Shown: positions 5,350-11,546 of the stretch, in pieces
Numbering within the stretch: the stretch's first letter is position 1
How the letters are laid out: the number at the start of each line of letters is the position of its first letter
IMG/VR virus record: IMGVR_UViG_3300036766_000416
Location: 32,001 to 96,000 of that record
Source: a virus
Direction: 5' to 3' (one strand)
DNA length: 64,000 bases
Notes under the pieces: generated by a model
What the model was told of the DNA's origin: nothing
The model's database searches: none
Seen by the model: only the letters and a program-made list of their open reading frames with translations
Made by a program: the position numbers and the translations under genes

Positions 5350-7257
5350 TTACGCAGGAGCAAAGCCCCTGTCCAGAGACCGCAAATAGCTCGATTCGCC
5401 GCTCCTGGCTGGGGGCATATTTTGATGTGTGGTAGTAGAGTTTGTGGTCTGGTTTTTCACATTATTGATGATTGTTGGTGCCACGATACCCTGTGTCGCG
5501 GGTGTCATAGCTGCATTTCTTTGAAGATCATTCGCTTGCGTGAGGGTTTGTCCTGTCTGTGGAGTCGCCGCCGGAAGTTCGGTGGGTGACGATGACATGA
5601 GGGTTTGAGGTACACTGCTATTCTCATAGGAATTTTCACCACCCATAGATGCAGGTGTTACAGACGAACCAGTTTGGCCTACGATAGCATCCAACCTCGC
5701 TGCGTCATCCCCAACAGCAGTCGGTGATTCGGACTTTGTTTTAGCTTCACCCATGAGCCAATCAGAGACAGACTCTTTGGCCATGGTCATCAGGCTGGGC
5801 AACCTTTCGGCGATCAGAGGATCGGTGAATGGATCAGCGTTGTAGATTTCCATATACGCATCACGTACCAGTGAGGCCACCAGTGACGGGATAGCCGCGC
5901 CAGGAATTGGAAGTGCTCCAGCGGCGTCGATGCCCGCACCCACCAGATCACCTTGAAGTAAGCGTGATGCAGCGAACGCAAGACCTACTGCGGACCCCAC
6001 TACAGGGATCAAAGTTGCAGCTTTCGACCCCAGAATCTTCGGAGCGATTCTTCCGAGGACCCCGGCAATTTTACTCTTGGGGGCAATCTTAGCCACCCCC
6101 TCAACGGCGACACCCACACCTTTGGTGATCTTGGAGGCGCTGCTGAGTTCTTTTGCTGCAATTTTTCCGGCAGCTTTTTCTCCGGCTTCTCCAACAACCT
6201 TCGCACCAGTTCCCAGGATTTTACCTGCGAGATCCTTGACACCACCTATAATGGCTTTTCCACCTTTGAGAATGGCTGAGCCTCCTTTGGTGACCGCACC
6301 TATTGCACCCTTACCTAAGGATTTCAAGGCACCGGTGATGGAGGGAAGAAGTCTGGTCAATGCTCCACCGAGAAGTGATAGTGGATTGAGGAGTTTACCC
6401 AGTGAAGCTGCGAATTCTAAAGCTGCGGCACCAAGTATCTTGAACCACCCCATGAGCGTTTCGAGCCAGGAGGGACCTTCTTTTTTCTCCTCGCCTTTGA
6501 TAATTTGTTTGGGTGTAACCTTTTTGAATTTTGCGCTTTCAGCAGCTTCTTTGTCCCTGATGCGTTCTGCTTCTGCCTTGGCTAATCCAACTCCCTGCTC
6601 CTCAAATTTTTCTATGTTATGGAGCGACAACACCATTTTTTCTAATAGATTGAGAACCTTTGTTGAAGAGACTGGCGAGGCACCACCTTCCGTGCCCTCG
6701 TTTGCTGGGCTTGGGCTTCCGGCTGCCCCTGCAGCACCATCCAGACCTGGAGGAAGGACACCTTGTAAACCCGCTGCACTGCGTATTGATTGCTCAGAGC
6801 GACCCATGATGCGGCCAGCCAAGACAGTAGCGAGCTTTGAGCCACCGGTGAGTCTGTGAACGATGTTGAGAGGATCGAACCGTTTCTTGATTGATGTTTT
6901 GATTTTTCGAGTTTTGAATCCTGCAGCAGCGCCAATTGCACCCTTGACGGAACCTCCACCCGCGAGGTGTTCGGCTGCTACATCAGCCATTGTGTTTTCA
7001 CGTTGCTGACTTTCGACTATTCGGCTTCTAATATTTCTGAGGGCTGCAAGGATTTCTTTTTTTGTTTCTTTTCCAAGTTCTACTTTAGGAGGTTTGGGAT
7101 CTTTAGGAGCGCGAGGGGTTGGACGGTGCTCGTGTTTGATGTTCGCCTTGGCCACTTCTTCCACGGGCTTTGTTTGCGAGGCAATTTTCTCAAGGCTCTC
7201 GCGCATGTCAGCAAACTGATCTTTCATATCTTTGAATGGGTCTTTTTCTTCAGCCAT
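5350..7257 (-). CDS. Probable tape-measure / baseplate hub (gp29-like) protein, 635 aa
   Basis: Ala/Gly/Lys-rich amphipathic stretches, two hydrophobic segments and a low-complexity S/T/N C-terminus (PTIINNVKNQTTNSTT). Late promoter directly upstream. Located next to gp4 and gp48. Family is inferred. Confidence 0.55.
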   Translation of the reverse strand: MAEEKDPFKDMKDQFADMRESLEKIASQTKPVEEVAKANIKHEHRPTPRAPKDPKPPKVELGKETKKEILAALRNIRSRIVESQQRENTMADVAAEHLAGGGSVKGAIGAAAGFKTRKIKTSIKKRFDPLNIVHRLTGGSKLATVLAGRIMGRSEQSIRSAAGLQGVLPPGLDGAAGAAGSPSPANEGTEGGASPVSSTKVLNLLEKMVLSLHNIEKFEEQGVGLAKAEAERIRDKEAAESAKFKKVTPKQIIKGEEKKEGPSWLETLMGWFKILGAAALEFAASLGKLLNPLSLLGGALTRLLPSITGALKSLGKGAIGAVTKGGSAILKGGKAIIGGVKDLAGKILGTGAKVVGEAGEKAAGKIAAKELSSASKITKGVGVAVEGVAKIAPKSKIAGVLGRIAPKILGSKAATLIPVVGSAVGLAFAASRLLQGDLVGAGIDAAGALPIPGAAIPSLVASLVRDAYMEIYNADPFTDPLIAERLPSLMTMAKESVSDWLMGEAKTKSESPTAVGDDAARLDAIVGQTGSSVTPASMGGENSYENSSVPQTLMSSSPTELPAATPQTGQTLTQANDLQRNAAMTPATQGIVAPTIINNVKNQTTNSTTTHQNMPPARSGESSYLRSLDRGFAPA

Positions 7258-8232: not shown

Positions 8233-8259
8233 CACTGATGCAGTCCATTGGAGGTATTT

Positions 8260-9339
8260 ATGGCGGACGAGAGTCTCGTTGGTGATATACAAAACTATGT
8301 GGTAGATAAGTTCAAACAGTTGGTGAATAGCGAGACAGCACGAAACGCTGCATTCGTTACCAGGGATGCGATCAATAGCATTACGGCTGAGGAGACGCAG
8401 GAGCAACGTGGTAAGAATGTAAAAGAACAAAAACTTTACCAATACAAGTATCACCAGTATCCCCTCGATTTAGCAAAAGGCGGCCGCCATCCATACTATA
8501 TGACATTTTTTATTGCGACTCAAGACTTGTCCCAATTCAAGCGCCCAAAGTCAAAAGGTCCGGCTCCTCTGTCTACCGTTGATATCAACGCCAGGGCTAC
8601 TAAGACTTTAGCTAAAAATTATAAGGACAGCAATATAGGTTTCGGTAGAAAAACCCATCGCACAACCAATGCGATCCGGTTATACATGCCCGATAGCTTG
8701 AGTTGGAATTTCCGCAACCAATTTGGTGACGTGAGTTTATCGGGGATTCCTGGTACGGCCCTAGCTCAGGCTATCGCCTCGGGTCCTGCTTTAGCCAATT
8801 CTCTTATCGAAGGCTACCAAAAGAGCGGTATTACTGGACTCCTGGCCAGTCTCAATTCCAAGGAAGCGCGCGCCGCGGCCGCTCCACTCGCCGAGGTTAT
8901 TGGAGATAAAATTCCAGGAGTTGGTTCTGGATTACTAACCTCGGCCCTAGGTGTGGCGGTAAATCCACAGATCGATGTCATTTATCAATCTCCATCTCTA
9001 CGAGAATTTATATTTGACTACCTTTTTGCCCCTCGTAATGCTCAAGAATCGGCTATGGTGTCCGATATTATCAAATTATTCAAATTTCATGCATCCCCCG
9101 AAATTCTTAGCACGGGGTTTGGTCGATATTTCATTCCACCATCGGAATTTGATATTGAATTTTCAGTAAATACCATGGGAAAGATTTCAACATGTGTGCT
9201 TGAGGAGGTGACCGTTGATTATGCACCATCAGGAGCCTCGTTTTACAGAAGCGATGATCAACCCGTCAATACGCATATGACCTTGAGATTCAAGGAACTC
9301 GAATTTATGACAAAGGAACTCATAGAAAGAGGATACTGA
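8260..9339 (+). CDS. 48: Baseplate tail-tube cap gp48
   Basis: GGAGG at 8250-8254 supports ATG 8260. YQYPLDL; IRLYMPD; AVNPQIDVIYQSPSLREFIFDYLFAPRNAQES; LRFKELEFMTK. Confidence 0.9.
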   Translation: MADESLVGDIQNYVVDKFKQLVNSETARNAAFVTRDAINSITAEETQEQRGKNVKEQKLYQYKYHQYPLDLAKGGRHPYYMTFFIATQDLSQFKRPKSKGPAPLSTVDINARATKTLAKNYKDSNIGFGRKTHRTTNAIRLYMPDSLSWNFRNQFGDVSLSGIPGTALAQAIASGPALANSLIEGYQKSGITGLLASLNSKEARAAAAPLAEVIGDKIPGVGSGLLTSALGVAVNPQIDVIYQSPSLREFIFDYLFAPRNAQESAMVSDIIKLFKFHASPEILSTGFGRYFIPPSEFDIEFSVNTMGKISTCVLEEVTVDYAPSGASFYRSDDQPVNTHMTLRFKELEFMTKELIERGY

Positions 9340-9341
9340 AA

Positions 9342-9983
9342 GTGGCTGGACAATATTCCGAATTTCTTTCTTACATCAGTAGGTATGGGGTCGCTAAAAC
9401 CTCACACTTTCGATTATCCATACCCGCGGTGTTTAAGTTAGACAAAAAAAATAAATTCTCTGATATGGATAAACTACTGGGGCTAAGATGCGAAGCCACA
9501 GAATTACCTGGGCGGCAGATCATCTCCAATGATTCAAAGGTCTACGGTCCCACATATAAAACACCTTATCAGTCGCTCTATCAGGAAATTACATTGAATT
9601 TTATCGAAACTAGCTCATTCCTCATTCGTGATTTTTTTGAACAGTGGTTGAGCAACATCTTCAATCCAACCACAAACATGCTCGCTTATCCAGATGATTA
9701 TAGGTTTGAAGTGTCACTCAAACAATATGAAACATTTTTGGATGATGTAAATAATCCTAGTGCCAGCCTTGTAGCTACAGCAAAATGGAGACTCTATAAT
9801 TCGTTCCCCACTGCTGTCAACCAAATGCCAGTCGCATGGGCCGAAGATGGACTCCATCGAGTCACTGTCACCCTGGCCTATGAGTGGTACACACTCTCAA
9901 CAGGTGGTGATTCTCTGAGTGATGAAAGCCGAGAACGTCTCAAGTCTCCACAACAACCTCCAAAAGGAAGTGCTCGTCCATAA
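9342..9983 (+). CDS. 54: Baseplate tail-tube initiator gp54 / gp19-fold protein
   Basis: LRCEATELPGR; YGPTYKTPY; FFEQW; LYNSFPTAV; VTVTLAYE. Follows gp48. Confidence 0.75.
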   Translation: MAGQYSEFLSYISRYGVAKTSHFRLSIPAVFKLDKKNKFSDMDKLLGLRCEATELPGRQIISNDSKVYGPTYKTPYQSLYQEITLNFIETSSFLIRDFFEQWLSNIFNPTTNMLAYPDDYRFEVSLKQYETFLDDVNNPSASLVATAKWRLYNSFPTAVNQMPVAWAEDGLHRVTVTLAYEWYTLSTGGDSLSDESRERLKSPQQPPKGSARP

Positions 9984-10006
9984 TCATTCTAGAAAGGTGA
10001 ATTGTC

Positions 10007-10756
10007 ATGGCGTTACCCAAATTAACAGTGCCTCTGTATAATATCATGTGTCCGTCAGGATTGAAAGTCTCATTTAGACCATTCCTTGTCAAAGAAGAGA
10101 AACTTTTGATGATTGCCATGCAGTCAAGTGAAACAGAGACTATCATCAACACTGCTAAACAGATTCTTGAAAATTGTATTGGTAGTGTTTCGGGCATCGA
10201 TATTGATAAATTGCCCCTCTTCGATGTTGAGTTTTTGTTCCTGAATCTCCGGGCCCGTAGCATCGGTGAGCAAGTGACCTTGAGGTATAAGTGTAATCAA
10301 TCTGTGATTGATGCGAACACTGGTAATACAGAAATTTGTAATACCGTATCAGAATATCCCGTTGACTTACTGAGCATCCACCCGACGTTTGGTGTAGATC
10401 ACAACAAGTATATCCAATTGACAGAGAAGGTGGGCATCACCTTGAGATACCCTACATTCAAGGCATTTCGCAATATTGCTCGTCGAGACCTCCCAACCGA
10501 TGAGGCGTTTGCGTTTCTTGTGGAGTGTATTGAATCGATCAATGATAGCAATAGTGTAATTTTCACCAAGGACGTACCGGAATCCGAGGTGATCGAATTT
10601 ATCAATGATTTAAGTCATGCACAAGTCGAGAAGATGGATCATTTTTTCGACACGATGCCAAAGATTGAATTGACACTGCATTTCAAGTGCCCGAAGTGTC
10701 AGCACACAGAGGAAATTGTGGTGTCGGGGCTAGACAGTTTTTTCGTCTCATACTGA
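10007..10756 (+). CDS. 26: Baseplate hub assembly protein gp26
   Basis: MALPKL; FRPFLVKEEKLL; LPLFDVEFLFLNLRARSIGE; FFDTMPK; CPKC; GLDSFF. Confidence 0.92.
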   Translation: MALPKLTVPLYNIMCPSGLKVSFRPFLVKEEKLLMIAMQSSETETIINTAKQILENCIGSVSGIDIDKLPLFDVEFLFLNLRARSIGEQVTLRYKCNQSVIDANTGNTEICNTVSEYPVDLLSIHPTFGVDHNKYIQLTEKVGITLRYPTFKAFRNIARRDLPTDEAFAFLVECIESINDSNSVIFTKDVPESEVIEFINDLSHAQVEKMDHFFDTMPKIELTLHFKCPKCQHTEEIVVSGLDSFFVSY

Positions 10757-10806
10757 ACCATGATAATCTAGCGAACTACTACACCACAACGTTCGCTTTG
10801 GTTCAG
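10738..10806 (+). promoter_or_regulatory. Putative -1 programmed ribosomal frameshift signal (26 to 51)
   Basis: T TTT TTC (10738-10744) in the gp26 frame, 8-nt spacer, then hairpin CTGAACCA (10753-10760)/TGGTTCAG (10799-10806) enclosing AGCGAAC (10770-10776)/GTTCGCT (10791-10797). Confidence 0.7.
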
Positions 10807-10941
10807 GATCATAAATTTTCAATATCGGAACTTGAGAACCTCATGCCGTGGGAACGATTGGTGTATTTGACATTGGTGCAGCAACGTGTTGAAAAAGAGA
10901 ACGAACGAATCAGAGCCCTTAACGTACAAAGGAAACGATAA
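10744..10941 (+). CDS. 51: Baseplate hub assembly catalyst gp51, in the -1 frame relative to gp26, with no ATG before its conserved part
   Basis: NHDNLANYYTTTFALVQDHKFSISELENLMPWERLVYL..EKENER. Confidence 0.85.
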   Translation, partial: RLILNHDNLANYYTTTFALVQDHKFSISELENLMPWERLVYLTLVQQRVEKENERIRALNVQRKR

Positions 10942-10944
10942 ATA
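10937..10944 (+). promoter_or_regulatory. Variant late promoter GATAAATA, 5 nt before the gp2 ATG
   Basis: One mismatch to consensus. No SD sequence before ATG 10950. Confidence 0.6.
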
Positions 10945-10949
10945 CTCTT

Positions 10950-11546
10950 ATGAGCACAATTATCCAACGTATCAATGAACAAGCTGTCACCAAAAAGGTG
11001 GATACCTCGACAGCCTTCGGTCGGTCTTGGCTTCTCCAAAAAATGGCGAAGCTGACACCATCGGCCAAAGACCGTATGGAGATTCTCCGTGACCGTGAAG
11101 CTCAACGCACTCGAACCATGGTGGGGAGATTCTATTTTTTCTTTTACTCACCCAAAGGGCACGAAACCCTCCCCTACTGGGACCGGTTTCCAATGGTGAT
11201 TCCTTTGATGAGGTACCATGACGGGTTCCTTGGCCTCAACCTTCATTACATTCCGCCAAAGGACCGATTGATACTCTTGACACAACTCAGGCGGTTCGCC
11301 ACGGGTCCGCTGACGGACGAACGCACTAGATTGCGATTATCGTATCCTATTTTGAAAGCCGCGCACCAAGCGTACCGCGCGACCCCCTGTATCAAGAGGT
11401 ACCTCGCGGGGCATGTACGTTCGAGGTTTATTGAGATACCCACAACCGAATGGGATATTGCAGCGTCCTTGCCAGTTCAAAGTTTTACCAGCAAAACTCG
11501 TATTCGCAAAGAAGAAGTATGGCAAGAGTCAAAGGAGCAATACTAA
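10950..11546 (+). CDS. 2: DNA end protector gp2
   Basis: GRFYFFFYSPKGHETLPYWDRFPMV; GFLGLNLHYIP; PCIKRYLAGHVRS; EWDIAASLP. Confidence 0.93.
   Translation: MSTIIQRINEQAVTKKVDTSTAFGRSWLLQKMAKLTPSAKDRMEILRDREAQRTRTMVGRFYFFFYSPKGHETLPYWDRFPMVIPLMRYHDGFLGLNLHYIPPKDRLILLTQLRRFATGPLTDERTRLRLSYPILKAAHQAYRATPCIKRYLAGHVRSRFIEIPTTEWDIAASLPVQSFTSKTRIRKEEVWQESKEQY

Follow-up and report, generated by a model that had tools for sequence, protein, structure and literature searches.

A T4-like phage very likely makes its gp26-type baseplate hub chaperone in two forms, gp26 and a gp26-51 fusion, through a programmed −1 ribosomal frameshift within a single gene. The gene is located in the window, the stretch of 64,000 nucleotides analysed here, which is part of a complete uncultured T4-like virus genome of 178,609 bp (~179 kb) with terminal repeats. 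In the proposed mechanism, most ribosomes would stop at the TGA at positions 10754–10756 and release gp26 (249 aa), while some would slip back one base on U_UUU_UUC (10738–10744), probably aided in this phage by a hairpin 8 nt downstream. The slipped ribosomes would read the −1 frame to position 10941 and complete a 311-aa fusion with the junction ...GLDSFF/RLILNHDNL.... The short form would correspond to T4 gp26 and the long form to T4 gp51. By analogy with lambda gpG/gpGT, the N-terminal domain shared by both forms, which resembles that of tail assembly chaperones (TACs), would hold a tape-measure or hub protein, and the additional helical C-terminal domain of the long form would make a second contact. 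A preliminary description of this DNA had suggested the −1 frameshift between gp26 and gp51, and the suggestion is strongly supported by an invariant in-phase heptamer that is held by synonymous choices, a conserved −1 ORF that lacks a start, a complete genome that encodes gp51 nowhere else and the T-even gp51, which represents an in-frame long form. The same description assigned a fixed ratio to gp26 and the fusion, a property that cannot be inferred from sequence.

The zero-frame short form (positions 10007–10756, plus strand) is a gp26-like baseplate hub assembly chaperone of 249 aa. Residues 14–246 match PF12322 (T4_baseplate) with an E-value of 2e-56 and 191.4 bits, compared with a gathering cut-off of 24.5, and the protein matches phrog_150 ('baseplate hub') with an E-value of 5e-63, filling this profile up to position 233. 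The AlphaFold2 model of the protein has a pLDDT of 92.6. The surrounding genes are T4-type tail genes, which include a gp48-like cap, a tube-like protein, a gp2-like DNA end protector, and gp53-like and gp5-like proteins. The complete genome contains one gp26 locus. Its 3′ end reads AGT TTT TTC GTC TCA TAC TGA, which places T_TTT_TTC at 10738–10744 in the X_XXY_YYZ phase, exactly where the heptamer had been reported.

To define the junction in relatives, we compared 91 loci, which comprise the window and ten GenBank T4-like phages (a reference panel of 11) together with 80 IMG/VR loci; the gp26 proteins of the compared loci are at most 45% identical to that of the window. The alignment bears out the expectation that the heptamer is common to T4-like junctions: an in-phase T_TTT_TTN just before the gp26 stop is kept in 89 of the 91 loci (80/80 from IMG/VR and 9/11 from the reference panel), although these loci are related to one another and the counts are not independent events. 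The residue that precedes the heptamer differs (S, N, D, A or G), and its codon is NNT in 89/89 (AGT in 44 loci, AAT in 24, GAT in 10, TCT in 7, GCT in 3 and GGT in 1), against a background use of those NNT codons within the same ORFs of 0.32 to 0.84. Because the FF dipeptide is itself conserved, some of the T-run follows from the protein sequence, but all 89 of these loci use TTT at the first Phe position compared with a background of 0.72, and T_TTT_TTY spells only 9 out of 105 further Phe-Phe dipeptides within the same ORFs. The last codon is TTC in 69 loci, TTT in 16 and TTA in 4; TTA changes the zero-frame residue from F to L and keeps the classical slippery pattern. Fixed synonymous positions amid varying amino acids are expected of a signal at the nucleotide level, and the signal, kept in phase in 89/91 related loci, is far beyond chance.

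The site is a homopolymer run of 6–7 T, which also brings transcriptional slippage into consideration. RNA polymerase would add one U in the run, so that some mRNAs join the two frames; the inserted U would give an identical protein, and the absence of a conserved downstream structure (described below) would be irrelevant to a polymerase mechanism. However, efficient transcriptional slippage in bacteria usually requires runs of ~8–9 or more, and 73 of the 89 loci end the run at 6 T (with TTC or TTA) and show no lengthening. What the loci retain is precisely an in-phase X_XXY_YYZ, of which the classical U_UUU_UUA is one form. In addition, the distance from the heptamer to the zero-frame stop is 3 nt in 76 loci and 0 nt in 9, which places the stop within 0–3 nt in 85/89, a position that matters to ribosomes and not to the polymerase; the window is the sole locus with 9 nt in this interval. 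We consider transcriptional slippage very improbable and favour slippage of the ribosome.

After the ribosomal slip, base 10744 would be read twice, and the −1 frame reads FFRLILNHDNLANYY... up to a stop at 10939–10941. This segment (10744–10941, plus strand; RLILNHDNL...) is a gp51-like C-terminal domain. It matches phrog_634 ('baseplate hub assembly catalyst', gp51) with an E-value of 9e-23 and also positions 232–278 of the 282 positions of phrog_150, within the last 50 positions of the profile that gp26 fills up to position 233. The computed fusion has 244 + 67 = 311 aa, in agreement with the length of about 311 aa estimated earlier. The gp51 part is modelled as four helices with a pLDDT of 78. 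Conservation of the −1 product sets in at the heptamer, as illustrated by L10 (85/86 loci), N17 (81/86) and F18 (84/86), and the mean column identity of the −1 ORF is 55% in loci whose gp26 is at most 45% identical to that of the window.

Whether gp51 could be translated by itself depends on the available starts. The window −1 frame has no ATG, GTG or TTG between the heptamer and codon 20, which confirms the earlier observation that no ATG precedes the conserved gp51 core and extends it to GTG and TTG. The first canonical starts downstream of the heptamer are a TTG at codon 20 and then an ATG at codon 35. Upstream of the heptamer, the frame contains GTG codons at 10696 (14 codons) and 10687 (17 codons), and no obvious Shine-Dalgarno (SD) motif was seen before either of them. 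Among 86 loci, the nearest start after the heptamer often falls at codon 20–21, and 77 have no ATG, GTG or TTG from the nearest upstream −1-frame stop to the heptamer.

The two upstream GTG codons, which may serve as starts, together with an ATG at codons 3–8 of the −1 product in some loci, would suit a small, independently initiated gp51 protein, in which case the heptamer would be a by-product of the conserved Phe-Phe. Six GenBank records (S-SM2, P-SSM2, Melnitz, phiM19, R10Z and Moby) present gp51 in this way, as a small separate ORF. Against this explanation, the window has no canonical start ahead of the conserved core, most loci have none upstream of the heptamer, and about half of the loci have conserved residues ahead of the earliest possible start. 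Moreover, protein constraint does not account for the wobble T (89/89), the TTT (89/89) or the F-to-L TTA variants, and the T-even gp51 has a gp26-like body in frame. Independent initiation is thus a very improbable source of gp51. None of the eight GenBank loci with the heptamer has an annotated joined CDS, and the gp51 region is unannotated in ACG-2014b (L002, 2211–2392) and Aeromonas phage Ah1 (L007, 2214–2381) though both contain the heptamer and the conserved −1 ORF. A search for longer natural proteins that hold the 67-aa gp51 part returned none, which is weak evidence by the rating of the tool. An alternative without any recoding event, in which the −1 ORF would be what is left of a decaying gp51 that was formerly separate or fused, is barely credible: the missing start codon and nothing else speaks for it, whereas the ORF is open and conserved across diverged loci, no second gp51 domain exists anywhere in the complete 178,609-bp genome, and gene 51 is essential in T4 (PMC3004832).

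A different junction is observed in Salmonella phage Se-B (Kuttervirus; L010, 2200–2410), whose gp26 ends GAG ATT TTC ATT TAA without a canonical X_XXY_YYZ. Its −1 frame still runs into gp51-like sequence (…SMPWHLD…), and the record annotates a 42-aa ORF from an internal ATG. Ackermannviridae may employ another slip site or independent initiation.

Downstream of the window heptamer, a spacer of 8 nt (10745–10752) leads to a two-stem hairpin at 10753–10806 (plus strand), so the hairpin with two perfect stems exactly 8 nt past the heptamer is present as first described. The outer stem has 8 bp (CTGAACCA/TGGTTCAG) and the inner stem 7 bp (AGCGAAC/GTTCGCT), and the gp26 stop TGA sits in the 5′ arm. 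The hairpin has a minimum free energy (MFE) of −17.7 kcal/mol and a z-score of −2.7, with 4 of 200 shuffles folding as well, and a 75-nt fold test at the window junction gives a z-score of −3.7. The covariation anticipated across T4-like junctions was not borne out. RNAalifold found no consensus structure over 50 gap-free aligned junctions, and the window stem pairs are formed in 62.7% of the cells of aligned relatives versus 61.0% in shuffles; conservation of the hairpin across the family was therefore rejected, and the hairpin was retained as a local feature only. Segments downstream of the heptamer show a mild enrichment of stable folds, with z < −2 in 24% versus 11% of controls. From its MFE and z-score, the window hairpin is a candidate lineage-specific stimulator that may act locally, and the adjacent stop codon may serve as a substitute stimulator in most relatives.

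In most loci, the heptamer is preceded at a distance of ~9 nt by a purine-rich, SD-like GAGGG, GAAGG or GGGG (10726–10737 in the window), and its spacing resembles that of the dnaX stimulator. It is not claimed as a stimulator here, because it encodes a conserved Glu/Arg-Gly and is present in the non-shifting T2 too, so that its presence may reflect protein constraint.

T-even phages offer a long form that is encoded in frame. T2 gp26 ends GAG TTC TTT, which is non-slippery, and T2 gene 51 is located on the other strand. T2 gp51 (249 aa) matches positions 13–280 of the 282 positions of phrog_150 (E 7e-88), PF12322 (E 3e-54) and, in addition, phrog_634; its alignments to the gp26 proteins of the window and of T2 have E-values of 3e-6 and 9e-6, respectively. 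BLASTP gave no alignment between T2 gp51 and the window gp51 part, and the link between these two consists of the shared PHROG profiles. By these matches, T2 gp51 combines a full-length paralogue of gp26 with the same C-terminal domain in frame, which makes it the counterpart of the proposed fusion. T4 gp26 (208 aa) and gp51 (249 aa) are hub assembly chaperones, and T4 particles reportedly lack gp51 (Leiman et al., 2010; PMC3004832). In cyanophages and marine vibriophages, gp51 has been described without the first ~200 residues (Sullivan et al., 2010; PMC3037559), and it is these residues that a frameshift fusion would supply.

To compare the fold of gp26 with known structures, its AlphaFold2 model was aligned to 48,161 PDB representative chains without Foldseek. 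For residues 1–95, ranks 1 to 3 are 3fgx (Z 7.7, 86 aligned residues), 3klu/YqbN (Z 7.1) and 2ob9 (Z 6.4), where Z < 8 is middling by the standard of the tool, and each alignment spans most of the chain. These entries are the three solved tail assembly chaperones, 2ob9 being that of HK97 (PMC9603447). The first clearly unrelated fold appears at rank 5 with a Z of 4.7. In a Foldseek search of the model against the PDB, no match was found at E ≤ 0.001 and 2ob9 appeared at E 0.66; the gp26 and gp51 profiles gave no match to the sequences of solved structures. The modelled N-terminal domain thus resembles the TAC fold (HK97 gp13-like), a similarity that stops short of proving homology. The analogy to G/G-T, drawn at the outset from the frameshift signal, gains from the finding that the top three PDB folds for this domain are the solved TACs. 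Combining sequence and model, we lean slightly towards gp26/gp26-51 being a tail-chaperone analogue.

Rank 4 of the same alignment (Z 5.6) is 5ir0, the uncharacterised ORF19 of a Vibrio cholerae PICI-like element (PLE), which may itself be TAC-like. Beyond its N-terminal domain, gp26 consists of an alpha/beta domain (~150 residues) with Cys pairs. Cys57 is invariant, and gp26 also contains Cys96 and a C-terminal CPKC motif (residues 229 and 232), which becomes an NPKT-like sequence in marine cyanophage members; T2 gp51 shows weak Zn-ribbon matches in Pfam. The Cys residues may form a metal site that is kept by part of the family only. The whole gp26 fold is found in BFVD, with a probability of 1.0, in distant non-T4 myoviruses: Campylobacter CP220, Bacillus SP-15, Ralstonia phiRSL1, Pseudomonas PaBG and Leptospira LE4. 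Its occurrence outside the T4 group indicates that the family is much wider than 'T4-like'.

Gene order in the relatives points to a possible client. An ORF of at least 300 aa starts at the gp51 stop in 64 of the 72 relatives with enough sequence, and in 60 of them it has at least 400 aa. Weak tape-measure PHROG matches were obtained for two of four tested proteins from this large ORF. The succession of gp51 and a large ORF corresponds to the lambda G-T-H order, and in 55 relatives among L011–L090 a gp2-like gene upstream of gp26 accompanies the large ORF after gp51. The window is rearranged at 8248–11546, where gp2 follows gp51 and the G-T-H-like order is broken. The only large Gly/Ala-rich candidate ORF in the window is at 5350–7257, on the opposite strand and beyond the gp4 fusion gene. 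Its 635-aa product, which the preliminary description took as the likely client, aligns by hhalign to the large ORF after gp51 in relatives over 35 columns (probability 55%, E 1e-4), and it gives one tblastn match to a post-gp51 ORF, in L045. It has no match in Pfam, and a BLASTP comparison with the large gene that follows gp51 in S-SM2 is not significant. This minus-strand protein, possibly a gp29-like tape measure, is a possible but weakly linked client of gp26/gp26-51.

The −1 frameshift of tail assembly chaperone genes is reportedly conserved, as described by Xu, Hendrix and Duda in 2004. A contractile-tailed example is P2, in which a −1 slip occurs in the chaperone gene ahead of the tape measure and gives gpE/gpE+E'; the gpE family consists of a small protein that is unrelated to gp26. 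The P2 chaperone frameshift is mentioned in a 2016 recoding review, which describes the G-T frameshift as conserved among long-tailed phages "except T4" (PMC5009743). The terms T4-like, baseplate and gene 26 are absent from this review, and a full-text search of the openly accessible literature found no report of a 26/51 frameshift. A frameshift at this junction would remove the stated exception to a nearly universal recoding in long-tailed phages, and it would imply that many T4-like genome records misannotate or omit the gp26-51 product. A wider proposal is that the T4 superfamily as a whole has gp26 and gp26-51 as its true, hitherto unrecognised tail assembly chaperones, fold homologues of HK97 gp13/lambda gpG, that the frameshift pair is ancestral, and that T-even phages replaced the pair by duplication into 26 (short) and 51 (long); to us the case for and against this proposal is evenly balanced. 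If it is true, the G/GT rule would apply to every long-tailed phage, and the role of T4 gp26/gp51, in question for decades, would be explained, in that they would hold gp29 and recruit the tube or hub.

The proposed pair resembles two known systems. With T4 gp26/gp51 it shares the PF12322/phrog_150 body, the phrog_634 C-terminal domain, the presence of a short and a long form, and the baseplate neighbourhood of gp48, gp54, gp2, gp53 and gp5. In T-even phages, the two forms come from separate, divergently transcribed paralogous genes that are ~20% identical, and gp26 has no slippery site. In contrast, the window phage does not have two separate genes for the short and the long form; its long form appears to be reachable only through the −1 frame, and one gene with a −1 slip would give two forms with an identical body. 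One gene here very probably does what T4 does with genes 26 and 51. With lambda gpG/gpGT, the pair shares an X_XXY_YYZ near the end of the upstream ORF, a −1 extension that lacks a start, T4 homologues that are non-virion proteins and, in relatives, a large tape-measure-like gene in the next position. Compared with the known TACs, gp26 shows no sequence similarity and carries an extra alpha/beta domain; in T4 it acts in hub and baseplate assembly, and the synteny is rearranged in the window.
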